From: a virus
Taxonomy: Duplodnaviria; Caudoviricetes
Length of the DNA: 64,000 nucleotides
Virus record (IMG/VR): IMGVR_UViG_3300030330_006019
Location: 1 to 64,000 of that record
Direction: 5' to 3' (one strand)
Shown here: piece after piece, positions 640 to 62,622 of the stretch
How positions within the stretch are numbered: position 1 is the first letter of the stretch
Layout: each line of letters begins with the position of its first letter
Translations under genes and position numbers: made by a program
The notes under the pieces: model-generated
The model's database searches: none
What the model was told of the DNA's origin: nothing
The model's input: only the letters and a program-made list of their open reading frames with translations

Positions 640-1191
640 TTATTTATATATTCGACTATTACGCCAGTTACGAAATGCAAATTCGATTTCAGGGTCTATT
701 GATTCCTGCATGCTCTTAATCTCAACAACTGGTTCTGGGAACATGGTTGCAAGTATCTCCATAATGCGTCGGCGTTGTATGCCACTTATTTGTTTGTTGG
801 CCAAAGCCTTTTCGACATGTGCAGTAGCACGGTCACGACAATCCATCTCCATCCAATCAATGGCAACCTCAAGGACACGCTCTAGGTCACTATGAGTATA
901 CTCACGAATAGGTTTGATATTGCGAGGAGTAGTGGATAGTGTAGTCTTGTCAGTTGACGACTTGCCACCACGAAGGCCACGCATAATACCATAACCACTA
1001 CGTGCAGCCAACTTGTTGATTCGCCTAGCAGTTTCCTTGTCGGTTATTTGAATAGTATTACCGGTTTTGTGATATGTAATATCGACACAGGCAACAGCCT
1101 CCTCGGTACTACAATCAACACATACATTATAGCCAAGACTAACCCGACCAGCAGGAATAGTGCACTGACATGATTTACAGATAGCTGACAT
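640..1191 (-). CDS. TraR/DksA-like C4 zinc-finger protein
   Basis: N-terminal CKSCQCTIPAGR...CVDC matches the CxxC-x-IP-x-R...CxxC pattern. Confidence 0.6.
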   Translation of the reverse strand: MSAICKSCQCTIPAGRVSLGYNVCVDCSTEEAVACVDITYHKTGNTIQITDKETARRINKLAARSGYGIMRGLRGGKSSTDKTTLSTTPRNIKPIREYTHSDLERVLEVAIDWMEMDCRDRATAHVEKALANKQISGIQRRRIMEILATMFPEPVVEIKSMQESIDPEIEFAFRNWRNSRIYK

Positions 1192-1218
1192 AATCTAGTT
1201 TGTTTTTTATTTGATAAT

Positions 1219-1274
1219 TAAATATAACCATAATAGTTGGGAAATAAAAATTATTGATGAAAAAGTTATTAACA
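1219..1274 (-). promoter_or_regulatory. Class-1 promoter (TTCCCAA..GTTATATTTA) with upstream TGTTAATAACTT box
   Basis: Same composite motif recurs upstream of genes at 3986, 5358, 5629, 12141 and 12685; TATATTTR resembles the Bacteroidota -7 box TAnnTTTG. Confidence 0.7.
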
Positions 1275-1721
1275 ATTTACACCACTATAACCCAGAGCAT
1301 GTGTATGGTATCGGTATAGACCATCCTGTCCTTTACGGATATATTCGTAATCACCATTGCCTATCAGTCTACGCCTTGGTGTCATTAGGCTACGATAGTG
1401 TCCACTACTGAAACTACCACCACGGTGATTGACTGGATGGTATTCCATGTTGCTAAACAGGTAGTGGTATTCCATACTCATTTCAGTCCATGTACAGGGT
1501 CCAGTTTGTTTCACAAAATCGAGCAGAGCTCGAATTATACCGCCATTCTTAAAGTAGAATCCTTGTGGTACCTGTTGTCCCTTGGCACTATATTCCTGTT
1601 CGATACTTTCTATCCTTGTCTGATATGGATAGTTATCGGATGTACCTTTTGCCTCTACATAATCTCTAAACCACTTTGGTGCTCGAGGGTCATGTGTTTG
1701 TTTTTCAATGTTGTCTTTCAT
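1269..1721 (-). CDS. Hypothetical protein
   Basis: 150-aa ORF, co-oriented, AT-rich leader. Confidence 0.7.
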   Translation of the reverse strand: MKDNIEKQTHDPRAPKWFRDYVEAKGTSDNYPYQTRIESIEQEYSAKGQQVPQGFYFKNGGIIRALLDFVKQTGPCTWTEMSMEYHYLFSNMEYHPVNHRGGSFSSGHYRSLMTPRRRLIGNGDYEYIRKGQDGLYRYHTHALGYSGVNC

Positions 1722-1807
1722 ATTATCTATATTTAATTGGTTTTATACTTTTATAGTGTTAAACACTCTTCTACTACTATCACTTATATACAAGAAAAAT
1801 TGGGCTC

Positions 1808-1939
1808 CTGTACAAAGACGGACTAATGCTTAATGCTACACACACATATCTTGCTGTTAACAAGAAATAGTCCGACTGCATTCACTTGCAGATTTTTGTG
1901 TGTTATAGACAGCCACAAGGCCTGTAATAGACCTGTGGC
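1808..1939 (-). ncRNA. Candidate pseudoknotted structured RNA plus adjacent hairpin
   Basis: Stems 1819-1825/1868-1874, 1840-1846/1897-1903 (crossing), 1849-1853/1861-1865, 1876-1880/1887-1891, and hairpin 1912-1939, in an intergenic gap. Confidence 0.45.
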
Positions 1940-1955
1940 ATTGTCCTGTGGTCCT

Positions 1956-3962: not shown

Positions 3963-3985
3963 AGTTTAATCATTTATTTATAATA

Positions 3986-4062
3986 TAAATATAACTAGAA
4001 TAATTGGGAAATAAAAATTTTTTCACTATTATTTTAGAAAGTTATTAACATAGTTATTAACA
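3986..4062 (-). promoter_or_regulatory. Class-1 promoter with two TGTTAATAAC boxes
   Basis: taaatataactagaataattgggaa at 3986-4010; aagttattaaca 4039-4050 and agttattaaca 4052-4062. Confidence 0.7.
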
Positions 4063-4107
4063 ACCTAACTCCACCCCAAGCAATAAAGCCAGGGCAGAGA
4101 GGTTGTT
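4059..4107 (-). terminator. Long G.U-rich hairpin after the AAA+ gene (terminator or stabilising stem)
   Basis: aacaacct/aggttgtt outer stem with inner ctc/gag and tgccct/ggggtg pairs on the minus strand; no clear U-tract. Confidence 0.45.
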
Positions 4108-4118
4108 CCAGTCGCTTA

Positions 4119-5324: not shown

Positions 5325-5357
5325 AAGCGACTATTTATTGTTGTTTTTATTTATATA

Positions 5358-5435
5358 TAAATATAACTATTAATATTGGGTTTTGTGCTATAACTTATCG
5401 TAAAGTTATTAACAATAATATCAAAGTTATTAACA
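5358..5435 (-). promoter_or_regulatory. Class-1 promoter with two TGTTAATAACTT boxes
   Basis: taaatataac 5358-5367, ttggg 5376-5380, aagttattaaca 5403-5414 and 5424-5435. Confidence 0.7.
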
Positions 5436-5597: not shown

Positions 5598-5628
5598 AGT
5601 ATTATATTTTTTAACCATTATTATACTA

Positions 5629-5660
5629 TAAATATAACTAGAATAATTGGGAAAAAAAAA
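5629..5660 (-). promoter_or_regulatory. Class-1 promoter
   Basis: taaatataactagaataattgggaa, identical to the copy at 3986-4010. Confidence 0.7.
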
Positions 5661-6763: not shown

Positions 6764-6838
6764 ATTATATTACTCCTTTATATAGCCTTGTAAAGTTGTT
6801 GATAACTTGTAAAGGCAACTTTCTGGTTAGGGTTTGAT

Positions 6839-6880
6839 GTGCGACATCGCATGTGCGAACTTCGCCGGGCCGGGCGGGGG
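6839..6880. repeat. Right copy of GC-rich inverted repeat followed by a G-tract
   Basis: gtgcgacatcgcatgtgcgaacttcgc with internal dyad tcgca-tg-tgcga, then cgggccgggcggggg. Confidence 0.75.
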
Positions 6881-7603: not shown

Positions 7604-7606
7604 ATT

Positions 7607-8321: not shown

Positions 8322-8849
8322 CTATTTCTCCTTATTTAATTTTATATAAAGTTTATTATTTCTAATATACATAACTCCTACAGGTACTTCTTTTAATTCT
8401 CTACCTTGTAAATCATATATTTTTTTATTACCTATGGCTTTAATTTCCAATTCTTCTATATTTGTTGGCACCATATTAATCAATACCCATGAAAAACTAT
8501 TCTGGTCAAATACTAACCAATCTTCTATATTACAGTATTCTACTGAACCATTTTCATAAATAGACACAGAATAAGATACTTTTATTGTGTCATGTACTGT
8601 AATCTGAGAAAAATAATAATACATACCTTGTCCTGAATAACACATACCATTTGGATAAGTACATACTCCCCAAATCACATCTATAGAATCTGGATTGTGT
8701 ACTATATTTGTTGTATCAAGTCCTATGTTAAATCCTTGACTTTGGTCTATCCAATATGTTATTGAGTCACAGCAAAAATATGGAACTGCCTGTTGTGCTT
8801 GTGTTTGTAGTCCAAGCGAGACTAGTACTGCTAATAAAACCTTTTTCAT
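8322..8849 (-). CDS. Secreted protein with short T9SS-type C-terminal sorting domain
   Basis: Sec signal MKKVLLAVLVSLGLQTQA; C-terminus T.IEE...KIYDLQGRE...G.MYI.NNKLYIK. Confidence 0.7.
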   Translation of the reverse strand: MKKVLLAVLVSLGLQTQAQQAVPYFCCDSITYWIDQSQGFNIGLDTTNIVHNPDSIDVIWGVCTYPNGMCYSGQGMYYYFSQITVHDTIKVSYSVSIYENGSVEYCNIEDWLVFDQNSFSWVLINMVPTNIEELEIKAIGNKKIYDLQGRELKEVPVGVMYIRNNKLYIKLNKEK

Positions 8850-9236: not shown

Positions 9237-9290
9237 AACTTTTATTCTAAATTTTTAATTAATATAACCATTTCAATTGATATAAAAAAA

Positions 9291-12140: not shown

Positions 12141-12206
12141 CAAATATAACTAGAATATTTGGAATTTGAACTATAATTTTCAATTATTTTTGAAAAGTTA
12201 TTAACA
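12141..12206 (-). promoter_or_regulatory. Class-1 promoter (exact TAnnTTTG) with TGTTAATAACTT box
   Basis: caaatataac 12141-12150 reads GTTATATTTG on the minus strand; aagttattaaca 12195-12206. Confidence 0.72.
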
Positions 12207-12684: not shown

Positions 12685-12762
12685 TAAATATAACTAGAAT
12701 ATTTGGGAAAAAAAAATTTTTGGGAGACTTTTTTCTAAAAAAAGCTAAAAAAGTTATTAACA
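12685..12762 (-). promoter_or_regulatory. Class-1 promoter with TGTTAATAACTT box
   Basis: taaatataactagaatatttgggaa from 12685; aagttattaaca 12751-12762. Confidence 0.7.
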
Positions 12763-15206: not shown

Positions 15207-15250
15207 GTTAATTTCTTTTTAATAAATATAACAAAAATTATTGACAAATA

Positions 15251-15534: not shown

Positions 15535-15599
15535 TGTTTTCTCCTACTTTTGTTAATATTAATAAAAATCGCTTAGAATTAGAGGGTCTAATTAATTAA

Positions 15600-16013: not shown

Positions 16014-16150
16014 GTTTTTCCTCTTTTATTACTTCCTCTATTCTAAACTGTACAATACTCCATAATCTCTATAGAGTTATCTTTTAAGTTATATAATATA
16101 ACTATAATTTTTGAATTAAAAAAATTTTATACCATAAATATGTTGATTAT

Positions 16151-26456: not shown

Positions 26457-26747
26457 TTATCTCCTGTTTAGTTCATCAATTTTTTCCTCAATCCTGTCCA
26501 AATCTTCCTTTATTTCTTCAACGTCTTCTTGAGTATTCTCTATGGTTAAACGTATGTTTTTATCCTTCATATCAAATTCCATTCTTGTGACATCCGGTGG
26601 AGGCGGAACTGGTAATTCTTTTGCCTCTTCAATATCTGCCTGTAGTGCAAACCACATTCCGATAACTGTTGCCATTGCGAATCCAATTGCAATAAGGGTT
26701 TTTATACTAACCTTAAAACCTGAATCTTCATTTAATTCCTTTGCCAT
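26457..26747 (-). CDS. Single-TM protein with Pro linker and C-terminal coiled coil
   Basis: TM LIAIGFAMATVIGMWFAL, PVPPPP, heptad VEEIKEDLDRIEEKIDEL; AGGAG SD. Confidence 0.75.
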   Translation of the reverse strand: MAKELNEDSGFKVSIKTLIAIGFAMATVIGMWFALQADIEEAKELPVPPPPDVTRMEFDMKDKNIRLTIENTQEDVEEIKEDLDRIEEKIDELNRR

Positions 26748-26757
26748 GTGTAAACTC

Positions 26758-27837
26758 CTAAAATATTACGTAGTTAAGTCCAAAACTAAAATCGTGCCAA
26801 TTACGATTCCAGTACTTATTATATTTTCCTTCAACAAATAACCCTAATTTTTTTGGTATAACATAATATCCAAATATAAGGCCACCTGAATAATCTATCC
26901 ATTGTCCACCGTTATATTCATGATAACTAAATTCACCACCATCATCATAATGATATGGCATTACGTTACCCCAACTATGTAACCAAAATTCTTTTGTGAA
27001 ATGATAAAAATCAAATCCAATAACAACTGAATATTGAAATGTTTGGTCTAATTGATTTCTCTTCTTTTCAGTATAATCTGATAATACAGTTGGTATAACA
27101 ACACCTTCCCATATTGCCGTATTTTCTGCAACTAAGTTTCCTGATGGATTGTAATAGGTTTCACCACCTTCACCATCGAATTGTATTGTATAGCCTTCTT
27201 GTATTGCTAATTGAGTATAATGTAAATTACCATTTGATAACATCCATTCTTCCAAAGGATCATATCCATAAGGTTCAGATAGTCTTTGTACTGCACCTAT
27301 ATTAAATGATAATTTATTACCAACCTTTTGCCTAAATCGTTGAGATGCTTCAAAGTATTCTATATCTGCAAATCCATCTTGTAAATATTCAACCTTAACA
27401 ATCCACCTGTCTGCTACATATCTCAAAAAGTGATTTTGGTCTAAAAAGTTAGTACCTTGTTGTCTTCTATAATCAGCTTCAAATAAAAATTCAAACCCAG
27501 AAACTCGACCAATTGTTGCTGCATCACTAAAACTATTTTCTGTACCATTATAAAATGTATTTGCTCTATTCTCATATCCTAATCTTGCAATCTTTCTTAC
27601 ACCAGCTGTAAGTGAATAATCAAATGGAGTAGAAATTGTATTTGTTTCTAAACCATTAGTAACTGAAAAAATATCTACATCTGAAACTGAATTACCTCCA
27701 TTTACAGCACCATAAAATGTTGCAAACTTAAATGTCTTTTTAAGACTTTTCTGTATTTTATCAAACTTATTATCTTTAACTTCTTGACCAAACACTAATG
27801 CTGGTAACATACATAGTATGATTAGTAACTTTTTCAT
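26758..27837 (-). CDS. Outer-membrane beta-barrel protein
   Basis: Signal peptide, aromatic-rich alternating strands, C-terminal FSFGLNYVIF. Confidence 0.75.
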   Translation of the reverse strand: MKKLLIILCMLPALVFGQEVKDNKFDKIQKSLKKTFKFATFYGAVNGGNSVSDVDIFSVTNGLETNTISTPFDYSLTAGVRKIARLGYENRANTFYNGTENSFSDAATIGRVSGFEFLFEADYRRQQGTNFLDQNHFLRYVADRWIVKVEYLQDGFADIEYFEASQRFRQKVGNKLSFNIGAVQRLSEPYGYDPLEEWMLSNGNLHYTQLAIQEGYTIQFDGEGGETYYNPSGNLVAENTAIWEGVVIPTVLSDYTEKKRNQLDQTFQYSVVIGFDFYHFTKEFWLHSWGNVMPYHYDDGGEFSYHEYNGGQWIDYSGGLIFGYYVIPKKLGLFVEGKYNKYWNRNWHDFSFGLNYVIF

Positions 27838-28148
27838 TTTCTTTTACTCCTATTTTTATTAGGCTTATTTGGTTTATTATTCCAAGTTGGTCTATGACCA
27901 TTATATGTAGGTTTATTATTTGGTTTTACAATTACATAATTAGTTGTTTGCTTTGGTCTTGTTAGCCACCACCAATTATAATAATTTGGATATGTTTCAT
28001 AATGATATGTAGTTGGTGGTTTACAACATGCATGGTTAGTCAAGCAAGGTTCACCTCTTAGCATTAATTCACATTTGTGCGGTGCTTCATATGTTAAAGC
28101 ACAACTTGTAAATAACATTGTTAATAATATGTAAATAATCTTGTTCAT
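27834..28148 (-). CDS. Lipoprotein, Cys-containing with Pro/Asn/Lys-rich tail
   Basis: Lipobox LFTSC. Confidence 0.7.
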   Translation of the reverse strand: MNKIIYILLTMLFTSCALTYEAPHKCELMLRGEPCLTNHACCKPPTTYHYETYPNYYNWWWLTRPKQTTNYVIVKPNNKPTYNGHRPTWNNKPNKPNKNRSKRK

Positions 28149-31100
28149 TATTTTTGCTTTATTACTCGTTTAGTTATTTTTAATTTATCATATGTTATGA
28201 CTATATTGTACAATCCTTCTGATATTTCTGAAATATCTAGTCTTTTAGCATTTTCTTTTGACAATATTAATCTTCCCATCATATCGTATAATTCTACATT
28301 AACATCTAATCTTGTATCAATGTTTAATATATCTCGTGTTGGATTTGGGTATATTACAATAGTACCAGAACCTGACATTTCATCAATAGATACTGGCCAT
28401 CCATCTTGGCAATAGTCGTACATTGATTGACAACTTGCATCCCAATCATTTGTACAACAATAATCATCAACATCAATTACCCAAGCATAACATCCATCAT
28501 TTAACCAATAAGGTATACCTGGTCCTCCATAACAACCTGCATCATATAAACATGCGTCTGGGTCAGATACATTGGCTAATGGGTCAAAGTTATATGCGCC
28601 TACATCTGTACAACCTACGATTATAGTTACACAGGTTCCATCATCATAACATGCATCTGGGTCATAATTAAGTGCAGTAGCATCAGTACAGCCACCTATA
28701 TAACAACAACTATTATCTAAAGTATTTGCCAATGGGTCATAATTAAGTGCAGCGGCATCAGTACAACCATAAACAAATGGTTCACATGTTCCGTTATCAG
28801 TATTAGCTAATGGGTTATAGTTAAACTGGGTTGAATCAGTACATCCATAAATAAACGGAATACAATTTCCTGATGATGTATTTGCTAGTGGGTCATAATT
28901 CCACATTGTCGGATCCATACAACCAATAACTACTGGGATACAACTATTATCATCTGTGTTTGCAAGAGGGTCATAGTTAAACATTGTTGGGTCTGTACAT
29001 CCGTATACATAAGGTATACATGAACCATCATCTGTATTTGCAGTTGCAGAGTAATTATACATTGTTGAATCAGTACATCCATAAATATATGGTATACAAG
29101 TTCCATCATCATCTGTAGCAGTTGGGTCAAAATTAATTGATAATGGGTCTGTACAACCAGCAATTTCTAATTCATCACAAATTCCATCACCATCAGTATC
29201 ATTTATACATGCACCATAACAATCATAATATTGTGTTGGGTAAATACATCCACCATTATCTACATTTGCAATTGCATCGTAATTACATGCTGTTACATCT
29301 GTACAACCTAGATATATACATGAAAAGTCATCAACATTTGCTAAGGGATTGTAGTTATATGCCAAACTATCAGTACACCCGTTAACAATAGGAATACAAC
29401 TGTTATCATCAACCGTTGCATTTGGGTCATAATTTATTGCAAAAATATTTGTACATCCATATATAATAGGAATACAACTGTTATCATCTACATTTGCCAA
29501 TGGGTCATAATTTGCAGCCGTACTATCTGTACATCCATACACTACTGGAATACATGTATTTCCACAAAATGGTACTCCAGTATATTTTGTCCAAAATGGA
29601 GATTCAAATGATTGAAGTGCTCCTTGACCATTATTAGCAAAAGGATTCTGTCCTTCATGCATTAACACAACACCATCTGCATTTGTTAGCTTAAATGAAT
29701 TGTGCCATGTTTGGAATTGTACTTCCTGAGGTGGTTGTTGTGGTCCACCTATTTCAAAATAAAATACTTCTACTGGAACTCCTGGGTCTAATACGATATT
29801 CCAAGTTTGTTGATAATTACCTGGTCCCATTGTATAAGTTCCAAGATTTATACCATTTTGATAAACTCCAATAAATGAGTTACCCCAACCATCACCACCT
29901 GCATCGCCAATCCATAATTCATAGTCACAATCTGGAGTTAAGTCCATCATTGTTGCAGTAGGGTCATAATTAAATGCTGCTGGGTCTGTACAACCATAAG
30001 TATGTAATGTTGCACAAGTTCCATCATCTATGTTTGCGGCTGGATTGAATTCAACATAATCATCATCAGTACAACCTAAAACATCTGGAATAACTGGACA
30101 AGGTGTTGCTGTTTGTGGTCCTGAATATAATACATTTCCAAAACCTGGATTGTCCATATACCAAATAGTATCTCCAGCACAATCATATATTACAGCTGCT
30201 CCATCAATAGAACCACCTGATGTAGAACCTGCCATTCCATCACCATAGTCATCATTTAATATTAATTCAAATGCAGCATTTTGGTCTACACAGAATGAAT
30301 AAGTATATGTTTGTCCTATATCATTAAAATCATAAGTTCCTACTGGATAATCAAATGTATTACCTAAGCCATCAACAAATTGCCAACTTGTTTCACCTGG
30401 CCAATTATCTAATGTTAATGAAAGAGATATTTGATATTGTGTGTTTGTATCACATGTTGTTCCTGAACATGAACCGTCATCTATTGTTGCCCAAGGATTA
30501 TATGATATTTGAGCTGGGTCTAAACAACCTGGAATACACGAGTATGGAGTATAAGCAATTGTATCTGACATTGAACCATCTGCAAACTCTAACTGACAAT
30601 AAAATTCTTCTTCCCAATTAGGTGGCATTTGACCTGGTCCTGTATTAAATGCAAAGTTATGAGGTCCGCCAGCTGGCCAATAACCTGGAAATTGAAATGG
30701 TCCTAAGCCATTTTCATTACTTATCCATACACTTACAACTTCACAATTATTACCTGGAGCAGTTTCCCATTCAAATATAGATAATGCTTGACCATTTGGT
30801 TGACAGTTCTGATATGCATTACTAAAAATAAGACCACCACATGGAGGATACGTACATGAACCATCATCAATTGTTGCAAGTGAATTGTAATTGGTTGCAT
30901 TTGTATCTGTACACCCAGTTACTGGTGGTGCACAAGGTTGTATGATAAGATTGTTTGCTAAATATGTTGTACCAAAATCACCAGCCACATATGCCAATGT
31001 ATCTTGACAATCATTTTGTATTAGTAACCAACCTTCTGGTGAGCCATTCCATCCAGCTAAACCATCACCATAAGAATCATTTAGTGTAAATTCAAATGGA

Positions 31101-31318
31101 CTATCTAATGAAGATAAATCAACTATTTCATCATATAAAGTTTCAGCTGTTAATACTGAATCACTCTCAGCAATTAGTTGTCCTGAACCATCTGTTAGTG
31201 TCCAGCTAGTTTCGTCTGGATAAGCATCAGTTAATAATTGTATATTTATCCAAGTATCTGTTGTTTGTGCAAATATTACTGATGGTAATAATAGCAATAA
31301 AAATAATAACTTTCTCAT
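28148..31318 (-). CDS. Large secreted surface protein with 16 Cys/Asp-rich repeats and a T9SS type A C-terminal sorting domain
   Basis: Signal peptide; GCTDxxAxNYDPxAxxDDGSC repeats; D.YP.ETSW...DSYGDG domains; C-terminal IYPNPTRDILNI...YDMMGR...LDIS....GLY....KRVIK. Confidence 0.9.
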   Translation of the reverse strand: MRKLLFLLLLLPSVIFAQTTDTWINIQLLTDAYPDETSWTLTDGSGQLIAESDSVLTAETLYDEIVDLSSLDSPFEFTLNDSYGDGLAGWNGSPEGWLLIQNDCQDTLAYVAGDFGTTYLANNLIIQPCAPPVTGCTDTNATNYNSLATIDDGSCTYPPCGGLIFSNAYQNCQPNGQALSIFEWETAPGNNCEVVSVWISNENGLGPFQFPGYWPAGGPHNFAFNTGPGQMPPNWEEEFYCQLEFADGSMSDTIAYTPYSCIPGCLDPAQISYNPWATIDDGSCSGTTCDTNTQYQISLSLTLDNWPGETSWQFVDGLGNTFDYPVGTYDFNDIGQTYTYSFCVDQNAAFELILNDDYGDGMAGSTSGGSIDGAAVIYDCAGDTIWYMDNPGFGNVLYSGPQTATPCPVIPDVLGCTDDDYVEFNPAANIDDGTCATLHTYGCTDPAAFNYDPTATMMDLTPDCDYELWIGDAGGDGWGNSFIGVYQNGINLGTYTMGPGNYQQTWNIVLDPGVPVEVFYFEIGGPQQPPQEVQFQTWHNSFKLTNADGVVLMHEGQNPFANNGQGALQSFESPFWTKYTGVPFCGNTCIPVVYGCTDSTAANYDPLANVDDNSCIPIIYGCTNIFAINYDPNATVDDNSCIPIVNGCTDSLAYNYNPLANVDDFSCIYLGCTDVTACNYDAIANVDNGGCIYPTQYYDCYGACINDTDGDGICDELEIAGCTDPLSINFDPTATDDDGTCIPYIYGCTDSTMYNYSATANTDDGSCIPYVYGCTDPTMFNYDPLANTDDNSCIPVVIGCMDPTMWNYDPLANTSSGNCIPFIYGCTDSTQFNYNPLANTDNGTCEPFVYGCTDAAALNYDPLANTLDNSCCYIGGCTDATALNYDPDACYDDGTCVTIIVGCTDVGAYNFDPLANVSDPDACLYDAGCYGGPGIPYWLNDGCYAWVIDVDDYCCTNDWDASCQSMYDYCQDGWPVSIDEMSGSGTIVIYPNPTRDILNIDTRLDVNVELYDMMGRLILSKENAKRLDISEISEGLYNIVITYDKLKITKRVIKQK

Positions 31319-31786: not shown

Positions 31787-31795
31787 TTTCTTCTC

Positions 31796-32023
31796 CTAGT
31801 TATTTGCAGGGTCGTGTGGTGCTATTGGTTCTTTTTTAGGCGTGTTCTGCAAATCATTAATTGCTTCTCTTAAAAGCTGTTCTTTCATATCCATGCCATC
31901 ACATCTACTTTTTAATTCTGCAATGTCATCTTCTAATTTACAACATTTTTCATCAAATGTTTTTTGTGATACCATACATGAACTTAATGTAAATATCATA
32001 AGTAATATAATTAGATTTTTCAT
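31796..32023 (-). CDS. Lipoprotein with coiled coil (spanin-like candidate)
   Basis: MKNLIILLMIFTLSSC lipobox; TAATG overlap sets the start at 32023. Confidence 0.65.
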   Translation of the reverse strand: MKNLIILLMIFTLSSCMVSQKTFDEKCCKLEDDIAELKSRCDGMDMKEQLLREAINDLQNTPKKEPIAPHDPANN

Positions 32024-33198: not shown

Positions 33199-33438
33199 TT
33201 ATCCTCCTATCTTTGCATATGTATGCATATCTGCTAGAGCTTTAAGTGCTTTCTTTTTAGCCTTTTCAAATTCTTTTCCATATCTTCCTGAACCACCACC
33301 TTTTTGAGCAAGGTTTGCCATTTGAAATATTTTTTTAATATTTTCAGCTTCTGGGTTCTTTCTCATTTTAGGTGCAGCTTCATTTGTTTCCTTTTCAGGT
33401 GAAAAAGCTTTTTGCGATATTATTGTTTTTAATTTCAT
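33199..33438 (-). CDS. Small basic protein with MKLKTII leader
   Basis: Leader-like N-terminus; AGGAG SD. Confidence 0.65.
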   Translation of the reverse strand: MKLKTIISQKAFSPEKETNEAAPKMRKNPEAENIKKIFQMANLAQKGGGSGRYGKEFEKAKKKALKALADMHTYAKIGG

Positions 33439-33785
33439 TATTTCTCTCCTACGATTCTAGACATTAATTTTGGATAACCTGAAACTACTAGTAAATTCTT
33501 AAGCATTTTTTGTAATACTGTTTTATCAGAACCTTCAGCCGTTTTAAGTTCATGTTTTATATGATTGACAAATGCTTTACAGTTAGACTCAAATTCTTTT
33601 GCAAATTGTCTGTCCATTTCAGCTTCTGTTAGTTCTTCATTTTGTTTTCTAATTTTTTTACCAGCCTTTACAGCAGCTTTATAAGATTTAGACCGTGGGT
33701 CTGACTTTTCACCACGCTTCTTTTTAGCATGAATGTTTGCCCAAAGACCCTTGTTCTTTTCAGTAATTATGTCTTGTAGTTTCAT
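33438..33785 (-). CDS. Basic protein with MKLQDIITE leader
   Basis: GLWANIHAKKKRGE motif; internal LTEA site. Confidence 0.7.
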   Translation of the reverse strand: MKLQDIITEKNKGLWANIHAKKKRGEKSDPRSKSYKAAVKAGKKIRKQNEELTEAEMDRQFAKEFESNCKAFVNHIKHELKTAEGSDKTVLQKMLKNLLVVSGYPKLMSRIVGEK

Positions 33786-34390: not shown

Positions 34391-34449
34391 TTGTTTGTTC
34401 TCCTAAAAACATATATTATTATACTAAAATAAATATCAATTCACTGGTA

Positions 34450-36752: not shown

Positions 36753-37429
36753 ATATTTGCTCCTAATTTTTTATCATACTTCTTTACTTCAGTAGTATTA
36801 TTTGTTCTATTATTTTCATGCATTCTATACTTATACAATGGAACTGGTAAATTGTAAATCTTATATGATTTATTAAATCTACTCAGTAAATCGTGACCTT
36901 CTCTCATCTTAAAGTTTTCATCATAGAAACCTATTTCACATAATGATTCATATGTAAACATTATTCCACAAGCAACAGGTTCTTTTTGAGATGAATGTCT
37001 ACTAAGTACTTCACCTGTTGGTCCAACCTTAAAATAGTCACATGCAACTCCTTGATAAAAAGTATCTTCACCAGATACCTTTGGACTTGCCGATAAATTA
37101 ATATCTAAAAATGTAGATAACATATACAAGAAATCACTTGATACATAATCATCACTATCAACTCTAACAAAATATTTTCCTAATGATGCTGACAATATTT
37201 TATTTAATGATTTAGGCAATCCTAAGTTTTCTTCATTATTGATTAACCTAATATTTATAAAATCCTTAAAGTTATTACAAATATAATCTAATCTTTCACA
37301 AGGGTCATCATTTACTATAACAACTTCAAAATCATCCTTTGGTATTGTTTGGGAAGATAAACTTCGTAAACACCTATGTAACCAATCTTTTTGCTTATAG
37401 CAGCAAATAGCAACTGTTATTTTATACAT
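36749..37429 (-). CDS. GT2 glycosyltransferase
   Basis: EVVIVND, NLGL..SLN, RVDSDD; start moved to MYKITV. Confidence 0.9.
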   Translation of the reverse strand: MYKITVAICCYKQKDWLHRCLRSLSSQTIPKDDFEVVIVNDDPCERLDYICNNFKDFINIRLINNEENLGLPKSLNKILSASLGKYFVRVDSDDYVSSDFLYMLSTFLDINLSASPKVSGEDTFYQGVACDYFKVGPTGEVLSRHSSQKEPVACGIMFTYESLCEIGFYDENFKMREGHDLLSRFNKSYKIYNLPVPLYKYRMHENNRTNNTTEVKKYDKKLGANI

Positions 37430-44910: not shown

Positions 44911-44945
44911 AATATAATATAACTAATTTTATTGACAATAAAAAA

Positions 44946-47714: not shown

Positions 47715-48438
47715 TAGCTCTCTCCTTCAAAAGTTTTTCAACTATTTCAATATCACCTGGAACATCAACTGCATGTGAGTCTCCAGATACATTTATTATT
47801 TTTACTGGTATTCCCATCTCTAAAAATCTCAATATATCAACTTCTTCTACACCTTCTAAAGGAGTAGTTCCCTGGTCTAAAAACAATTTTAACTCTTCTT
47901 TGTTATAAACATAAATACATACTTGTTTTTTACAAATTGGAGCATTTCCTGACTTTTCAACTGGTATTGGATTTCTTGATGCACATACAAGATTATCGGT
48001 TAGTCCCATTGCCATTTTTATGATGTTTCTATTTTCAGGTTTTTCAAAATCTTGTAAATCTGCTGCACAATTTATTACATACCCTGGGTATTGTTGTTTT
48101 GCATTTATTGCCAAAGTTATCTCATTAGGATTTAACATTGGTTCATCTCCTTGTAAATTTACAATTATATCAGCATCTAAATGATAAGCTGCTTCAGCAA
48201 CTCTATCTGTACAACATGGATGTTTAGGAGATGTCATAATAACATTATAACCGCCATTTTCAACAACATTTTTAATTCTTAAATCATCAGTTGCAACATA
48301 AACATTTTGTTTACCAACAGCTTTTTCTGCTATTTCTGCAACTCTTATAACCATTGGCTTACCTAGAATATTTTCCAATGGTTTTCCAGGAAATCTTCCT
48401 GATTTATATCTTGCTGGTATAATAACCGCTACTTTCAT
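47707..48438 (-). CDS. kdsB: 3-deoxy-manno-octulosonate cytidylyltransferase-like
   Basis: IPARYKSGRFPGKPL, VATDD, TDR, VNLQGDEP, LE..E.VD.LR, VD.P.D; start moved to MKVAV. Confidence 0.88.
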   Translation of the reverse strand: MKVAVIIPARYKSGRFPGKPLENILGKPMVIRVAEIAEKAVGKQNVYVATDDLRIKNVVENGGYNVIMTSPKHPCCTDRVAEAAYHLDADIIVNLQGDEPMLNPNEITLAINAKQQYPGYVINCAADLQDFEKPENRNIIKMAMGLTDNLVCASRNPIPVEKSGNAPICKKQVCIYVYNKEELKLFLDQGTTPLEGVEEVDILRFLEMGIPVKIINVSGDSHAVDVPGDIEIVEKLLKERANA

Positions 48439-51258: not shown

Positions 51259-51318
51259 AACTCTATTTCCTTTAATTTTATTTAATATAACAATTTTTCT
51301 TGAATAATAAAAATTTTA

Positions 51319-53488: not shown

Positions 53489-54019
53489 CTATTCTCCTTG
53501 TAAATTAATCTCATCTAAATTTTTTCCTGGTGGTTGTGTACCAATTGATGTATCAGTTTCTCCTGGCAAATATGCATCTAAAACATTTTTACTAAACTCA
53601 TAATTGACAACTCTAAGTGAATTAAAGTTGCCTATATTTAGTGTCCTATAACTATCACCTAATCTTGTTTTTGCAATTTTTCTAATTGCTGCTGCATAAA
53701 ACTGTTTAGGATTTTGTCCCACAATTAATTTTCTAAGCTTTACCTTTTTTGACTTATATGCTTCAGAATATTCTATTCCTTGTCCACCAGCAAATAAATT
53801 AAATGCATTTAATGGAATTAAGTCAAGTGACAATGCATGCATAACTCTTCTAAAATTTGGATTTAACACCAATAGTATATACTTTTTTGCACCACCCTTT
53901 TCCTTGCCTCTTGGTTGTTTTTTATAAACGGCTGAAATTATCATTCCAGGCTCCAACTGTGCAATTGATATTTGTTGTCCAGCTCCACATTTACTTAGAT
54001 GTTGTGAAAAGTATGACAT
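53489..54019 (-). CDS. Hypothetical protein (weak resemblance to T4 gp2-like DNA end protectors)
   Basis: PGMIISAVY...LLVL...HALSLDLIP...YRTL pattern only. Confidence 0.45.
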   Translation of the reverse strand: MSYFSQHLSKCGAGQQISIAQLEPGMIISAVYKKQPRGKEKGGAKKYILLVLNPNFRRVMHALSLDLIPLNAFNLFAGGQGIEYSEAYKSKKVKLRKLIVGQNPKQFYAAAIRKIAKTRLGDSYRTLNIGNFNSLRVVNYEFSKNVLDAYLPGETDTSIGTQPPGKNLDEINLQGE

Positions 54020-55745: not shown

Positions 55746-55754
55746 TTTTTTCTC

Positions 55755-57212
55755 CTAAAAATTATGTCCTACTGGGTATTTTGGTTTTGGTTTTTGTGAG
55801 TCAATTAAAGTAAATCTTTTTCTAGGTTTCCAATGTTTCCAACAACTTTCAATTGAACGTTCAAATGCATTACACATTTCCTTTGCTGTAAATCCATTTT
55901 CAATTGCCCAGTCTCTTCCTTTCATACCTCTGGTTTTTAATTCATCTACTCCTAATCTATATGCTTTTTCAATTTGGTCTGTAACATCAGGTATATTACA
56001 TCTTGAATCATAAATGTATGGTGTAAGAGGTGAACCTTGTAAATTTATTTGTGGCCAAACAACAAATGACCATTCACCATGATTCTTATACCTACCATTA
56101 CTATTACTTGGCCAATCAGAATTATAATCTTCCAACTCTACATATTTTCCATCATCTTTAATAATACCTACTTGGTCTTGTAAACCTCCAATACAATTTA
56201 CTAAAACTGGTGTACCTGTCATAATTGATTCCATGCAACTTAAACCAAATCCTTCAGCAGAACTAATATTTGCACCTAAATCTGACATATTATACAAGTA
56301 GTTTAATTGTTTTGTTGTTAACTTAGCTTCACTAAATATCACATTATAATCTGGTAATAGTGCATCTTTTACAGCACCTAAATCAGTACCTGCATCATCT
56401 ACTTTATTTGTGTGTAATAACAAGTAACATTCATTTGCTTGTTCTTTTGTTAATCTATCACAAAATAGTTTATACGCTAACATTAAGTCAGATGTAGATT
56501 TTCTTCTAATATTTCTACTGTTATACATTACAACAAATCCTGGCGTAACACCTCCAAATATCTGATGTTCAAATTTAATCAATTCATTAAACTCTGGGTG
56601 ATCCTTTCCAATTGGATAGTATTCATCTGTTGGTATTCCGTGTTGTACATATGTTAAGTCTATACCTTTTCTTCTAGGATTCTTTTGGCAAACATTAAAA
56701 TTAATATTGTATGTTTGCTTTGATATTGCCATAAGTAAATCACATGAATCATAAAAAGGCTCATTCCAATGCGGATAAGGCAAATCATCCCAGATATTCA
56801 AATATCCTAATGGTATAGTTTGTCTTATTTCATGTTCCATTTGATAAAGCCACTGCCAGAACCTAGGGTCTGTAAAGTGAATAATTGCATCTGGTTTTTC
56901 TTGTGAAATTATATGTCTAACAATTTCTTGAGTACCATAACCTGAACATGGATATATTTTTACATCTGCATCATCTACTCCAGTTTCAGTTTTTACTTGG
57001 TCACTTATATCTAAAAGTTTTCCATTGTCTGGATGTTTTACTGCTCCTCCTAGTTGTACCCAGTCATATCTATCAACTGTTCCAAAAACTAAATTCTTTG
57101 ATACAGTTCCTACACCTGAATGCAATCTCATATCATCTGAAAGCAATAATATTTTTTTCTTTTTTGGCTTATTTGGGTCTACACTTCTTAATTTTGGTAA
57201 TTTGATTTCCAT
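55755..57212 (-). CDS. GT4 glycosyltransferase
   Basis: SGVG, HG, RNIRRK, EGFGLSCMES...GTP, GGLQDQ. Confidence 0.9.
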   Translation of the reverse strand: MEIKLPKLRSVDPNKPKKKKILLLSDDMRLHSGVGTVSKNLVFGTVDRYDWVQLGGAVKHPDNGKLLDISDQVKTETGVDDADVKIYPCSGYGTQEIVRHIISQEKPDAIIHFTDPRFWQWLYQMEHEIRQTIPLGYLNIWDDLPYPHWNEPFYDSCDLLMAISKQTYNINFNVCQKNPRRKGIDLTYVQHGIPTDEYYPIGKDHPEFNELIKFEHQIFGGVTPGFVVMYNSRNIRRKSTSDLMLAYKLFCDRLTKEQANECYLLLHTNKVDDAGTDLGAVKDALLPDYNVIFSEAKLTTKQLNYLYNMSDLGANISSAEGFGLSCMESIMTGTPVLVNCIGGLQDQVGIIKDDGKYVELEDYNSDWPSNSNGRYKNHGEWSFVVWPQINLQGSPLTPYIYDSRCNIPDVTDQIEKAYRLGVDELKTRGMKGRDWAIENGFTAKEMCNAFERSIESCWKHWKPRKRFTLIDSQKPKPKYPVGHNF

Positions 57213-57422: not shown

Positions 57423-57480
57423 CTTATTATCTCCTTTATATATGAATATACATATATAAATATAATCATAAAATTAAAAA

Positions 57481-58103: not shown

Positions 58104-58453
58104 TTTAGCAACCCCTCTTTTCTCATTTGTTTTCTAATTTTAGTTGCTGATATCTTTTCAACTTGTGTTGGAGGTACATGTTCGATAATTTCATATCCAA
58201 CACCTCTGCCATAATTAACAGATTCTATGTCTGGTATAATTACTACCTTTATACTTCCATTTGCAATTTCTTTTGAAAATCTTTTATTTAAGTTTTGCTC
58301 AACTTCTTGTGGTGTCCAAGGTTGATTTTCATTTGGTTCAACATCCCTAATTGCTATACATATATTTTTGCCTTCTTTAATTCTTTGGTCTATTAACCAT
58401 TGATGGCCATCATGCCAAGGTTGCCACCTTCCTATAAACATTGAGTATTTCAT
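58100..58453 (-). CDS. Minimal HxGH nucleotidyltransferase (possible ATP sulfurylase-like)
   Basis: GRWQPWHDGH, YGRGVG, ISATKIR. Confidence 0.8.
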   Translation of the reverse strand: MKYSMFIGRWQPWHDGHQWLIDQRIKEGKNICIAIRDVEPNENQPWTPQEVEQNLNKRFSKEIANGSIKVVIIPDIESVNYGRGVGYEIIEHVPPTQVEKISATKIRKQMRKEGLLK

Positions 58454-60134: not shown

Positions 60135-60171
60135 CTATATAATATAACCAATTTTTATGAATTATTAAAAT

Positions 60172-60369
60172 TTATTTAGAGTTATTTTCAATAAGTTTAT
60201 CTAAATATTGTTTTGCTTTTAACAAATCTTCCATTCCATTTTTGTGTCGCCATCTTGTAATATACTTTACAATATTACCTTCAAAAAAGTCAAGGTTTTG
60301 AGAGTGAGCATATTCCCACATCTCTATTCCTTTAGTGTAATGCTTTGGATGTTTAACATTATCAGCCAA
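60172..60369 (-). CDS. DUF3310 (SaV-like) protein
   Basis: DNVKHPKHY..GIE...F..GN..KY..R..HKNG.EDL.KA..Y; probable TTG start overlapping the upstream stop. Confidence 0.85.
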   Translation of the reverse strand: MADNVKHPKHYTKGIEMWEYAHSQNLDFFEGNIVKYITRWRHKNGMEDLLKAKQYLDKLIENNSK

Positions 60370-60616
60370 GTTTAATTGTTCCTTTGCTATCTTTCTTATC
60401 TGCTTGTTGAGGAATAAGCTCGTCATTAACATGGCCACAGCTACTACACTCAAATACAGGCATTGGTAAAAAACTTTTCTTTCCACTTGGCGACATTACA
60501 GCTGAAACACGTTTTAATAATACTACTTGAATAAATGTAGGATTTCCACATTCTTCACAAACAACATCATCCATGTCGTTTAGATTTATATTTATCTTTT
60601 GTTTATTATCTTTCAT
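60362..60616 (-). CDS. Zinc-ribbon protein
   Basis: CEECG...CSSCGH. Confidence 0.75.
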   Translation of the reverse strand: MKDNKQKININLNDMDDVVCEECGNPTFIQVVLLKRVSAVMSPSGKKSFLPMPVFECSSCGHVNDELIPQQADKKDSKGTIKLG

Positions 60617-62265
60617 TATCCTATTCCAAATCCTCCTCCCATCATTGGTGGCTCTTTGCCTTCTTCCTCTGGGAGTTTATTAATTACACATTCAGTTGTT
60701 AAAATTGTACCTGAAACTGATACTGCTTTTTCAAGAGCAACACGTGTTACTTTATTAGGGTCAACAATTCCTTCTTCATACATATCTACAACTTTTTCAT
60801 TTCTTGCATCAAATCCTGGTACTTTCAAACCATCTGATGTATTAACTTTATTCCATATTACATCAGAATTTAGACCTGCATTTTCCATTATTGCATTAAA
60901 TGGTGCCTTGCATGCATCTAAAACAATTTCATATCCAATTAGTTGGTCAGGATTTGAAACAAATGGACCTTCTTCTTCAGCCTCTGTGCTTGCAATTCTT
61001 AGTGCTATTCCACCACCAGGTACAATACCTTCATCAATTGCTGCTCGTGTTGCTGCAAGTGCATCTTCAACTCTATATTTTTTTTCCTTAAGCTCTATTT
61101 CAGATTGTGCACCTATATTTAATATTGCAACACCGCCTGTCATTTTACCAAGCCTTTCTTGAAGACTTTCTATTTCATAACTAGAGTCTGAACTATCAAT
61201 TAAGTCTTTTATATCATTTGCCCTGGCTAAAACATCATCAGAATTTCCACCACCATCAACAATTGTTGTATTTTTACCAGTTATACTAATTAACTTTGCT
61301 GTACCAAACATATCAGGTGTAACTTTGTCAAGTTTCATTCCCTTTGTTGTTGAAATTACAGTACCTCCAGTCAAAACAGCAATGTCTTGTAACATATCAT
61401 TTCTTTTATCACCAAATCCTGGTGCCTTTACAGCTGCTACTTTACACGTACCTCTTGCTTTATTAACAATAAGTCCTGCCAATGCTTCACCATCAACATC
61501 TTCGGCAATAATAACTAAAGGCTTATCTGCTTGGATTGCCATTTCAAGTGGCTTAACTATTGATTTTAGACTAGATATTCGTTTATCATATAGTAGAATC
61601 CATGCATTTTCCAATTGGCACATCATCTTTTCATTTGAATTTACAAAGTATGGAGATAAGTAACCTCTATCAAACTGTAAACCTTCAACAACTTCTAAAT
61701 TTGTTTCTGATGACTTTCCTTCCTCAACTGTTATTACACCTTCACGACCTACTTTGTCCATAGCTTCAGAAATAAGGTTTCCAATTTCAGTATCATTATT
61801 TGCAGATATTCTTGCAACTTGTTGAATTTCAGTTTCAGATTCTATTTGTTTACTCATAGAACTTAATTTTTCTCTAATAACACCAACAGCCTTTTCCATA
61901 CCTCTTTTTATTTCAACAGGGTTTGCTGAACTTCTTGAAATTGTATTCAACCCATTCTCAATAATACTGTGAGCCAATACTGTAGCCGTTGTTGTTCCAT
62001 CACCAGCTTCATCATTTACTTGCTTGGCAACTTCTTTAACCATTTGTGCACCAGCATTTTGAACTGAATCTGTTAGTTCTACTTCTTCAGCAACTGTTAC
62101 ACCATCCTTTGTTGAAACATATTCACCAAAATCTTTTTCAATGACAACATTTCTACCTTTAGGACCTAATGTAGTTTTTACTGCATCACATAATGTATTT
62201 ATTCCAGCATACAATCCATCTTTTGCTTTTTTGTCAAATGATATTTTTTTTGGACCTGATTTCAT
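60616..62265 (-). CDS. groL: Chaperonin GroEL
   Basis: [52 protein letters not shown]. Confidence 0.98.
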
Positions 62266-62266
62266 T

Positions 62267-62563
62267 TTATTTCTCCTTAATAATAACTAATAATTCTTTT
62301 TCACGAATGACCAAATAGTCTTCTCCGTCAACTTCAATCTTTTTTGCACCATACTTTGGGTACATAACTTTATCACCTACTTTGCACTGCATATAACCAA
62401 CTTGGCCAGAAGATAATACTTCGCCTGGACCAACTGAACATACTGTACCTAACATAGTTTCTTCTTGTGCAATATCTGGAAGGATAACTCCTCCTGATGT
62501 CATTTCATCTGGGTCAATTGCTTTTAATACGACTCTATCGCCTATTGGATTTAATTTTTCCAT
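62267..62563 (-). CDS. groS: Co-chaperonin GroES
   Basis: PIGDRVV, TSGGVILPD, VGPG, KVGDKV; GGAGG SD before MEKLNP. Confidence 0.96.
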   Translation of the reverse strand: MEKLNPIGDRVVLKAIDPDEMTSGGVILPDIAQEETMLGTVCSVGPGEVLSSGQVGYMQCKVGDKVMYPKYGAKKIEVDGEDYLVIREKELLVIIKEK

Positions 62564-62622
62564 TATAACCTCCATTTATTATGTATATATTAATAACCTT
62601 TTTGTATATATAAATATACTTC

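Follow-up and report, generated by a model that had tools for sequence, protein, structure and literature searches.

The phage lineage studied here unites virion messages led by Shine–Dalgarno (SD) sequences, SD-less messages behind another type of promoter and, in its relatives, a ribosomal protein bS21 without the masking tyrosine. Ribosomes of Bacteroidia are blind to SD sequences because bS21, bS18 and bS6 hide the anti-SD. Judged from sequence, the SD-led virion leaders and the Tyr-less bS21 of the relatives suggest that the phage retunes the ribosomes of its host, and this account as a whole is our best explanation for the two start types of the phage, one to which we give an even chance.

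The window, i.e. the whole 64,000-nt stretch of DNA that was analysed, is part of a 105-kb contig (G000, completeness ∼42%) that starts within the major capsid protein (MCP) gene. Megablast of 20 kb of the phage against cultured phages gave no match. The contig is collinear with G001:23671-130261 at 87% identity, and G001 and L176 are its genus-level relatives (identity 87–88%). L176 was rejected as the missing neighbour of the contig, since the two overlap at only 85% identity and are therefore separate species. The head and tail proteins of G001 have homologues, encoded in the same order, in immuto-like T4-type myoviruses, as exemplified by Flavobacterium phage vB_FspM_immuto_2-6A (Immutovirus, NC_055915; hereafter immuto). 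TerL, portal, MCP, PhoH, sheath, tube, hub and tape measure are syntenic in identical order, and GroES–GroEL, the PD-(D/E)XK nuclease and glycosyltransferases belong to the shared synteny as well. Identities are 55% for TerL, 48% for the portal, 54–65% for MCP (65% across the aligned 73% of the query) and 54% for the sheath. Immuto also has its genes on one strand, has 49 of the 205 G001 proteins in common, and carries the GATATTTAT motif ahead of its virion genes, as our phage does. The best explanation is that the phage of the window is an immuto-like T4-type myovirus of ∼170 kb or more.

A sequence-only reading had taken the DNA for that of an apparent Bacteroidota phage, which is supported by a type A sorting domain of the type IX secretion system (T9SS), the main host clue on the contig:

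28148..31318, minus strand: 1056-aa protein with C-terminal T9SS type A sorting domain (PF18962 47.7 bits; TIGR04183 46 bits, cut-off 23); orthologue in G001

Furthermore, Flavobacterium is the host of the cultured relative with the closest MCP. From these sequences, the host is most likely a T9SS-bearing member of the Bacteroidota, and probably of the Flavobacteriales-type Bacteroidia. GDP-mannose dehydratase (Gmd), tried as a host probe in named genomes, was discarded as uninformative because it is similar to many phyla (57–65% identity). The Bacteroidia −7 box TAnnTTTG was not enriched in the intergenic regions of G000 or G001, nor in immuto as a positive control, and thus says nothing about the host.

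Two promoter-like motifs were found. The E motif, (T/C)CAA-N8-GTTATATT, heads replication, nucleotide, metabolism and glycan genes, and its leaders are short, ∼85% A+T and SD-less; the L motif, GATATTTAT, stands ahead of genes for the virion (adaptor, sheath, tube, tape measure) and for lysis (endolysin-like), and its leaders mostly carry (A)GGAG. The timing labels E and L are based on gene content alone, and the two classes presumably differ in their time of expression. In the window, the motifs and the SD sites associated with L motifs are:

1221..1228, minus strand: E-type promoter-like motif (CCAA-N8-GTTATATT), 37 nt ahead of start 1191; leader SD-less
3988..3995, minus strand: E-type motif ahead of start 3962 (CobT/vWA-like protein); leader SD-less
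5360..5367, minus strand: E-type motif ahead of start 5324 (AAA+ ATPase); leader SD-less
5631..5638, minus strand: E-type motif ahead of start 5597 (55-aa ORF); leader SD-less
9261..9268, minus strand: E-type motif (TCAA-N8-GTTATATT) ahead of start 9236; leader SD-less
12143..12150, minus strand: E-type motif ahead of start 12111 (ATP-dependent DNA ligase); leader SD-less
12687..12694, minus strand: E-type motif ahead of start 12656; leader SD-less
15225..15232, minus strand: E-type motif ahead of start 15206; leader SD-less
16095..16102, minus strand: E-type motif, 89 nt ahead of start 16013; long leader with weak GAGGAAA at its end
44916..44923, minus strand: E-type motif, 13 nt ahead of start 44910 (DegT aminotransferase); possibly a leaderless mRNA
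51284..51291, minus strand: E-type motif ahead of start 51258; just a weak AAGGAAA
60141..60148, minus strand: E-type motif, 14 nt ahead of start 60134 (PD-(D/E)XK nuclease); possibly a leaderless mRNA
34429..34437, minus strand: L-type promoter-like motif TTGATATTTAT, 47 nt ahead of start 34390 (endolysin-like)
34400-34404, minus strand: AGGAG in the non-coding leader of start 34390 (L-type)
57456..57464, minus strand: L-type variant TATATTTAT ahead of start 57422
57431-57435, minus strand: AGGAG in the non-coding leader of start 57422 (L-type variant)
62610..62618, minus strand: L-type variant ahead of start 62575 (GroES); GroES without SD
62273-62277, minus strand: AGGAG of GroEL (start 62265), the gene next after GroES

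The sequence-only reading had described six starts as SD-less (1191, 3962, 5324, 5597, 12111 and 12656), and indeed none of them has an SD core; they lie 33–43 nt downstream of CCAAnnATTnTAGTTATATT, with leaders of ∼85% A+T. All 14 starts to which it had ascribed an AGGAG (6763, 8319, 15534, 26747, 31786, 33196, 33438, 34390, 36752, 47714, 53485, 55745, 57422 and 62265) do carry AGGAG or AGGAGG 6–9 nt ahead of the start codon, and three more were found within the window (27837, 26453 and 42398). The spacing is 6–9 nt for 16 of the 17 AGGAG sites. Besides those behind L motifs and that of GroEL, they include:

6773..6777, minus strand: AGGAG, 9 nt ahead of start 6763, intergenic
8328..8332, minus strand: AGGAG, 8 nt ahead of start 8319, internal gene of an E unit
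15541..15545, minus strand: AGGAG, 6 nt ahead of start 15534, intergenic
26461..26465, minus strand: AGGAG, 7 nt ahead of start 26453
26755..26759, minus strand: AGGAG, 7 nt ahead of start 26747
27847..27851, minus strand: AGGAG, 9 nt ahead of start 27837
31793..31797, minus strand: AGGAG, 6 nt ahead of start 31786
33204..33208, minus strand: AGGAGG, 7 nt ahead of start 33196
33446..33450, minus strand: AGGAG, 7 nt ahead of start 33438
36760..36764, minus strand: AGGAG, 7 nt ahead of start 36752 (NAD-dependent epimerase), internal gene of an E unit
47722..47726, minus strand: AGGAG, 7 nt ahead of start 47714 (GT2 glycosyltransferase), internal gene of an E unit
53494..53498, minus strand: AGGAG, 8 nt ahead of start 53485
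55752..55756, minus strand: AGGAG, 6 nt ahead of start 55745 (glycosyltransferase)

Across the sense strand of the 105-kb genome AGGAG occurs 80 times, and in 26 cases its 5′ end lies 8–16 nt upstream of a called start (26 of 143 starts compared with ∼1 expected, a 26-fold positional enrichment with its maximum at −12/−11). Strong SDs stand ahead of 18.2% of starts, compared with only 0.5% of the ATGs internal to that coding sequence; upstream Gly and Glu codons thus do not account for them. Counting weak cores as well, ∼40% of all genes have an SD. The consensus, (a)AGGAG(a), has a purine-rich core complementary to CCUCC of the 16S 3′ tail, and the mean duplex energy with ACCUCCUUU was −3.96 at starts compared with −2.05 to −2.17 at internal ATGs. 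All 22 strong SDs that could be mapped to G001 (87% identity) are retained there; between the two genomes, substitutions affect 1.7% of positions in SD motifs and 5.8% in the flanks, a difference that is suggestive only (P = 0.08). In core and spacing, the AGGAG sites thus match canonical SD sites, which predicts pairing-driven initiation in the host.

When SD strength was scored for every start and partitioned by promoter class, the first genes behind E motifs (1 strong, 2 weak, 14 none) differed from those behind L motifs (5, 4 and 5; Fisher's exact test, P = 0.012); the same contrast in G001 gave P = 0.006. The absence of SDs had been proposed to follow proximity to a promoter, which is not supported in this form: the split follows the type of promoter. 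In the window alone, E-first genes (0 strong, 2 weak, 10 none) did not differ significantly from all others (17, 23 and 49; P = 0.12), since an SD is likewise missing from 55% of the latter. The significant contrast is the one between promoter classes E and L. A broader proposal, that early genes go without SDs and late genes with them, survives only as a tendency. In bS21-positive relatives, 31 of 48 virion genes have an SD compared with 4 of 18 replication genes (G001, G002 and G004 combined; P = 0.003). However, the internal genes of E and L units showed no difference (strong SDs in 9/59 and 11/51), which means that a clean early/late switch is not shown, and the strong SDs of SSB and GroEL further indicate that timing is not the sole determinant. 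SDs are found on abundant products of any class, namely MCP, portal, sheath, tube, SSB and GroEL.

The rest of the genome had been named as the place to look for bS21. The 105-kb contig, which starts inside the MCP gene, has none, but both genus-level relatives encode a 112-aa bS21 just beyond the point corresponding to the contig end, between portal and MCP and ∼1.3 kb upstream of the latter. Our phage may encode one as well. The G001 ORF scores 37.9 bits with PF01165 (cut-off 27) and 39.9 bits with TIGR00030 (cut-off 28.95), and in G001 and L176 the gene stands behind tttttttGTTATATT (E-type) with an SD-less leader. In Bacteroidetes bS21, Tyr54 stacks on A1534 and is a signature of the group (PMC7797042). 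The G001 protein has Arg84 in that column, by ungapped alignment to a Bacteroidota bS21 structure and by HMM alignment alike, and L176 also has Arg. Both have an N-terminal extension of ∼30 aa, and the 28-residue tail of G001 bS21 has a net charge of +5; it is thus not of the Bacteroidia type (Tyr54, weakly basic tail). G001-type bS21 belongs to a viral clade of N-terminally extended proteins. The same slot in the TerL–portal–protease–MCP module holds bS21 in G001, G002, G004, Mel-JY01 and 39 further loci, on the strand of the structural genes in G001, L176 and 39 of 39 loci with a match. Tyr or Phe occupies position 54 in 25 other loci of the family. Copies with the Bacteroidia signature (Tyr54, neutral tail) exist within this phage family, a further pointer to a Bacteroidia host. 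A search for phage bS18 found none, and a word-based homologue search and atlas look-ups, made for both bS21 and the T9SS protein, led only to viral clusters, which carried no host taxonomy.

SD use varies with bS21 among 54 head-module loci: any SD was present at 18.5% of starts where bS21 is absent, 46.5% with an aromatic residue 54 and 60.1% with a non-aromatic one (controls 8–9%), and the rise from aromatic to non-aromatic is significant if uncorrected for phylogeny (P = 0.0005). Since relatives with Tyr54 bS21 also use SDs, loss of Tyr54 is not required and cannot be the whole mechanism. Immuto, a complete genome from a Flavobacterium host, lacks bS21 and is essentially without SDs (1.8% strong plus 2.8% weak); its leaders show the pattern published for Bacteroidia, with adenines upstream at positions −13 to −10. 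Behind L motifs, 8 of 8 immuto leaders have no SD, whereas 7 of 8 have one in G000 (P = 0.0014). The bS21-less L251 and L252 (0%) and L241 (5%, although nested among bS21-positive lineages) are likewise nearly free of SDs; L220 is discordant, with SDs at 53% and a slot without bS21. On the MCP tree, presence of bS21 changes only four times, giving 2–4 independent contrasts (one of them, L220, discordant), too few for a sign test, and the association with SDs may therefore reflect a few lineage or host shifts.

The SD-less E leaders are of the start type read by native Bacteroidia ribosomes, and we propose that phage bS21, made from such a message, would replace host bS21 on the 30S platform. 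Because its tail is strongly basic and Arg stands where Tyr54 would stack on A1534, the bS21/bS18/bS6 pocket would not retain the 3′ tail of 16S rRNA, and the anti-SD would be freed. In F. johnsoniae, pocket mutations or loss of bS21 do free the anti-SD and permit SD pairing (PMC13000457). Incorporation of phage bS21 and release of the anti-SD would then give SD-led phage messages, chiefly the abundant virion ones, an advantage that host messages lack. More specifically, the clade with N-terminal extension, non-aromatic residue 54 and basic tail may be an unmasking subunit that creates an SD-reading ribosome pool exploitable by phage messages only, serving above all those from the virion-gene promoters; we rate this a little short of an even chance.

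That AGGAG is a mere by-product of composition or of upstream 3′-end codons, with no role in initiation, might be argued from the overlap of ∼two thirds of strong SDs with the end of the preceding gene. Statistics on position and on the controls refute it, and its probability is close to nil: the maximum at −12/−11 is sharp, only 0.5% of internal ATGs have the motif, sites occur in clearly non-coding leaders (57422, 34390, 15534 and 6763), every mappable site is conserved in G001, and the motif is absent from immuto despite similar composition. A host that reads SDs natively, either an FCB lineage that has T9SS but does not belong to class Bacteroidia or a different host entirely, is a more serious alternative. 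AGGAG would then be an ordinary ribosome-binding site, E leaders would reflect short or leaderless mRNAs, and bS21 would be a general translation booster unrelated to unmasking. In its favour, the phage bS21 clade is not specifically near Bacteroidia bS21 (Arg or Lys at 54 is the common bacterial state), bS21-positive Mel-JY01 uses GGAG and is recorded on a cyanobacterium (Microcystis), the ∼4 joint changes of bS21 and SDs are consistent with few host shifts, and bS21-negative loci have a higher GC content (median 0.39 compared with 0.33–0.34). This alternative is nevertheless weakened, and we consider it unlikely, given the T9SS domain, the Flavobacterium host of the nearest cultured relative by MCP, and SD use of 46% (controls 8%) in members whose bS21 has Tyr54 and a neutral tail. 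In addition, an SD core of any kind precedes only ∼40% of genes, and E leaders avoid SDs even though many are long enough, an unusual pattern for a phage whose host reads SDs. In T4, SDs are found on early and late genes alike.

The SDs could also function in a Bacteroidia host without the agency of phage bS21, read by a natural bS21-lacking 30S pool (the one translating host rpsU) or by ribosomes from which some other phage product has removed host bS21. In that case, SD strength would tune the yield of abundant proteins, while phage bS21 would have a different function, e.g. to keep ribosomes working. F. johnsoniae ribosomes without bS21 do translate the SD-led rpsU at a high rate (PMC9976891; PMC13000457). 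The spread of SDs over abundant products of any class, their use alongside Tyr54-type phage bS21 and their retention in L220 also fit, but the near absence of SDs from the bS21-less immuto, L251, L252 and L241 and the rise from aromatic to non-aromatic residue 54 argue against it, and we regard it as improbable.

Under the retuning proposed here, phage bS21 by itself should suffice to let host ribosomes read SDs. Were this borne out, it would be a clear case of a virus altering ribosome specificity by a one-protein swap, and it would help to predict hosts and call genes in Bacteroidota phages. Among ribosomal proteins, bS21 is the one that phages encode most frequently; its role, still a proposal, would become a defined molecular job. 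In the literature searched, we found no paper that relates a phage bS21 to how the genes of that phage use SDs. The N-terminally extended S21s of Al-Shayeb et al. 2020 (PMC7162821) and Mizuno et al. 2019, basic and aromatic in the extension like the G001 type, were predicted to supplant host S21 and favour phage mRNAs, with no tie made to residue 54, Bacteroidia anti-SD sequestration or the phage's own SD usage. The freshwater bS21 myoviruses of Chen et al. 2022 (ISME Commun 2:31, PMC9723584), assigned to Bacteroidetes hosts, are likewise large and T4-like and carry bS21 inside the head module (TerL, portal, protease, MCP), as do the relatives described here; their bS21 was proposed to join host ribosomes and, late in infection, to give preference to phage messages. 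In those phages, however, bS21 lies on the opposite strand, is about host length and always has an aromatic residue 54, from which the authors infer that the anti-SD stays blocked, whereas in G001 and L176 it is on the same strand, N-terminally extended, and has Arg and a basic tail. SD usage of phage genes was not analysed there; here, an E-type promoter for bS21 in the relatives is combined with SDs in the genome. Autoregulation of F. johnsoniae rpsU (McNutt et al. 2023, PMC9976891; NAR 2026, PMC13000457) follows the same logic, in that the bS21 status of the 30S subunit sets anti-SD availability and the reading of SD messages, and its authors speculate on phage bS21 exchange without a tie to SDs. 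There, a single host gene is controlled through a 13-bp extended SD helix that excludes bS21, and the effector is the absence of bS21; here, dozens of phage genes have SDs of 5–7 nt, and the proposed effector is a variant bS21.

AGGAG occurs genome-wide on the contig 80 times in sense and 19 times in antisense orientation, and 26 of the 80 sense copies have their 5′ end 8–16 nt ahead of a called start (∼1 expected), with a sharp peak at −12/−11. The contig is a linear viral sequence from IMG/VR (105,255 bp, 32% G+C, ∼42% complete according to CheckV), and the window is its first 64 kb. Its 143 genes all lie on the minus strand, cover 95% of the sequence and were called with a codon-usage caller blind to ribosome-binding sites. 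Counting AGGAG or GGAGG within −18 to −4 of the start as a strong Shine–Dalgarno (SD) core, we found strong cores at 18.2% of starts and four-base cores at a further 22.4%, compared with 0.5% and 7.6% at internal ATGs of the same coding sequence. The difference rules out upstream Gly/Glu codons as the explanation, a caveat attached to the sequence-only reading, whose start coordinates for SD-less and AGGAG-led genes were all correct. A chance origin of the pattern was also excluded. Of the 17 window sites, 16 have a gap of 6–9 nt between SD and start codon. All 22 strong sites that could be mapped onto G001, a genus-level relative with 87% identity, are strong there too, and the substitution rate between the two genomes was 1.7% within the motif vs 5.8% in its flanks (p = 0.08). 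The SD-led gene with start 6763 is preceded by an unusually GC-rich non-coding stretch (window ∼6780–6880) that has C and G runs and a small dyad, in surroundings of 30% GC.

Two classes of strand-specific promoter-like motif, provisionally labelled E and L from gene content alone, occur in the intergenic regions of the contig. The E motif, (T/C)CAA-N8-GTTATATT (24 sense and 4 antisense copies), lies 13–43 nt ahead of the start codon and heads genes for ligase, AAA+ ATPase, nuclease and primase as well as glycan genes. The 'class-1' sites of the sequence-only reading are those E motifs that have CCCAAnTATT and, farther upstream, either one or two copies of a GTTA-N-TAAC box. The L motif, TTGATATTTAT (12 sense copies and 1 antisense, plus TATATTTAT variants), heads the genes for PhoH, adaptor, sheath and tube and an endolysin-like gene. 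Within the window are genes for DNA ligase, an AAA+ ATPase, GroES/GroEL and a PD-(D/E)XK nuclease together with the endolysin-like gene, while the PhoH, head-tail adaptor, sheath, tube, hub and tape-measure genes lie on the contig beyond it. A ∼22-kb sugar-nucleotide and glycosyltransferase block (window 35134–57422) encodes GDP-mannose 4,6-dehydratase (Gmd), NAD-dependent epimerase, DegT aminotransferase, 2-hydroxyacid dehydrogenase, DUF4910 and several GT2 and GT4 transferases. Its Gmd is no recent acquisition from the host, since it is merely 57–65% identical to bacterial Gmds from many phyla. Smaller glycan blocks occupy the same location in two members of the family, Flavobacterium phage vB_FspM_immuto_2-6A (NC_055915; immuto) and Microcystis phage Mel-JY01 (PP395634). 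The inverted-repeat boxes (GTTA-N-TAAC, GTTAATAAC; 10 sense vs 1 antisense), most of them 45–65 nt upstream of CCCAA-subclass E promoters and sometimes in tandem, are a candidate regulator binding site.

Positions of the tRNA gene and the GTTAATAAC boxes in the window
50–124, minus strand, tRNA-Arg (anticodon TCT) at the 3′ end of the gene array
1265–1273, minus strand, GTTAATAAC boxes
4041–4061, minus strand, GTTAATAAC boxes
5405–5434, minus strand, GTTAATAAC boxes
12197–12205, minus strand, GTTAATAAC boxes
12753–12761, minus strand, GTTAATAAC boxes

At the starts 44910 and 60134 (also 34885 and 16396), a promoter-like motif ends just 5–7 nt before the ATG, with 13–16 nt from motif start to ATG; translation here may start on leaderless or near-leaderless mRNAs. 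Outside the window, in the region 96460–96495 of the genome, an exact copy of the T4 late-promoter consensus, TATAAATA, is flanked by an L motif and by the AGGAG that precedes start 96448. The L motif may form the upstream part of a bipartite late promoter.

The first genes behind the two motifs differ in their leaders. On the contig, E-first genes comprise 1 with a strong SD, 2 with a weak SD and 14 without, vs 5, 4 and 5 of the L-first genes (Fisher p = 0.012); the corresponding numbers in G001 are 2, 2 and 20 vs 9, 4 and 10 (p = 0.006). Internal genes of E and L units showed no difference (strong SDs in 9/59 vs 11/51), nor did E-first genes compared with all other genes in the window alone (p = 0.12). 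The split is therefore one between two leader classes. It does not follow promoter-proximal vs distal position, as the sequence-only reading had it, and does not extend to whole transcription units. Pooled over three separate bS21-positive lineages, 31 of 48 virion genes carry an SD vs 4 of 18 replication genes (p = 0.003). SSB and GroEL nevertheless have strong SDs, so SD-less early and SD-led late genes are a tendency only.

A search of the contig (∼42% complete) for bS21, a check proposed in the sequence-only reading, gave no S21 match, but relatives do encode the protein. G001, a 170.8-kb contig found by a sheath-based search, is collinear with our contig over positions 23671–130261 (98% aligned, 87% identity); it and two further relatives, G002 and G004, each have a bS21 above the Pfam cut-off. 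In G001 this is a 112-aa ORF (20677–21015) ∼1.3 kb upstream of the MCP gene, directly behind tttttttGTTATATT and with an SD-less leader, and L176, a third genus-level relative, shares this gene together with its promoter and leader. Our contig starts within the C-terminal part of MCP, and bS21 is therefore predicted to lie, very probably, just off the contig. The leader in G001 and L176 is unlike that of the G004 gene (36913–37110), which is preceded by AGGAGG like host rpsU in Flavobacteriales.

In Bacteroidetes, Tyr54 of bS21 stacks on A1534 at the point where the 16S tail bends to the platform pocket; both this tyrosine and a weakly basic tail are signatures of the group (Jha et al., PMC7797042). 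In F. johnsoniae, the 16S tail becomes free for SD pairing when the bS21, bS18 or bS6 pocket is mutated or bS21 is lost (2026, PMC13000457). When the G001 protein is aligned without gaps by phmmer to the solved structure of a Bacteroidota bS21 (9i5v chain 9), its Arg84 falls at the Tyr54 position, in agreement with the HMM alignment; the tail after Arg84 has 28 residues and a net charge of +5. The G001 protein groups with N-terminally extended S21s in a mostly viral clade whose predominant residue at position 54 is Arg.

Family members differ in SD use along with bS21. Immuto (complete, 160 kb, host Flavobacterium sp. LMO8) is syntenic with our contig (MCP 65% identical across the aligned 73% of the query) and has the same GATATTTAT motif ahead of sheath, tube, GroES and other virion genes. 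Unlike G001, G002 and G004 it has no bS21, and the same pipeline found 1.8% strong and 2.8% weak SDs, with upstream adenines as in the published Bacteroidia pattern. An SD is missing from 8/8 GATATTTAT leaders in immuto and present in 7/8 of ours (p = 0.0014). In immuto, strong SD-like cores are rarer at starts (1.8%) than at internal ATGs (4.9%), suggesting that SD-like sequence is actively avoided before start codons. Strong SDs make up 3% in G003, a relative without bS21, and 20–37% in the bS21-positive G001, G002 and G004.

We also took 80 MCP-centred IMG/VR loci, 54 of which cover the slot upstream of MCP. Any SD was found at 18.5% of starts where bS21 is absent (15 loci), 46.5% where it is aromatic at residue 54 (25 loci) and 60.1% where it is non-aromatic (14 loci), with internal-ATG controls of 8–9% in all three classes. 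On the MCP tree, however, bS21 presence/absence amounts to 4 changes and 2–4 independent contrasts, so the small family p-values overstate the evidence. One locus without bS21 (L241, 5% SD) is nested among bS21-positive lineages and fits the association, whereas another (L220) lacks bS21 in the slot yet has 53% SD. This locus speaks for SD reading that is independent of phage bS21, which we nevertheless consider improbable. Since Tyr54-type phage bS21s also accompany SD use, loss of Tyr54 is not the whole story.

A host that itself reads SDs seems to us similarly unlikely. A 1056-aa protein (window 28148–31318) combines a T9SS type A C-terminal sorting domain, shared only by our contig and G001, with a TSP3 repeat. 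This domain, the closest cultured relative on Flavobacterium and the Bacteroidia-signature bS21 copies in the family make a Bacteroidota host, probably of the Bacteroidia, a likely prediction. Por_Secre_tail proteins occur in many viral clusters of the atlas. Against such a host stands Mel-JY01, recorded on Microcystis, with Lys at residue 54 of its bS21; it has GGAG sites at 33% of starts. Its intergenic regions contain 13 sense copies of TAnnTTTG, the Bacteroidia −7 box, vs 4 ± 2 expected from shuffles, and the rest of its phage family is tied to Bacteroidota; the cyanobacterial host on record may merit re-examination.

The best-supported explanation, in which we place about as much belief as doubt, is a two-regime translation programme with a phage bS21 that frees the anti-SD. 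Native SD-blind ribosomes would read the SD-less, A/T-rich leaders, the one on bS21 among them; a non-masking phage bS21 would then free the anti-SD and thereby favour SD-led leaders, which are concentrated on virion genes. Phage-encoded bS21, and the proposal that it acts in late translation, have been published (Mizuno 2019; Al-Shayeb 2020, PMC7162821; Chen 2022, PMC9723584) and discussed (McNutt 2023, PMC9976891). The phage bS21s of Chen et al. are all aromatic at residue 54, and those authors' reading is that the anti-SD stays blocked. In the literature we found no link between phage bS21 and the SD usage of phage genes. To these known systems the window adds a late-promoter motif common to relatives with and without SDs, an SD-less bS21 leader of the E type, a T9SS domain as a pointer to the host and SDs that are not limited to late genes.
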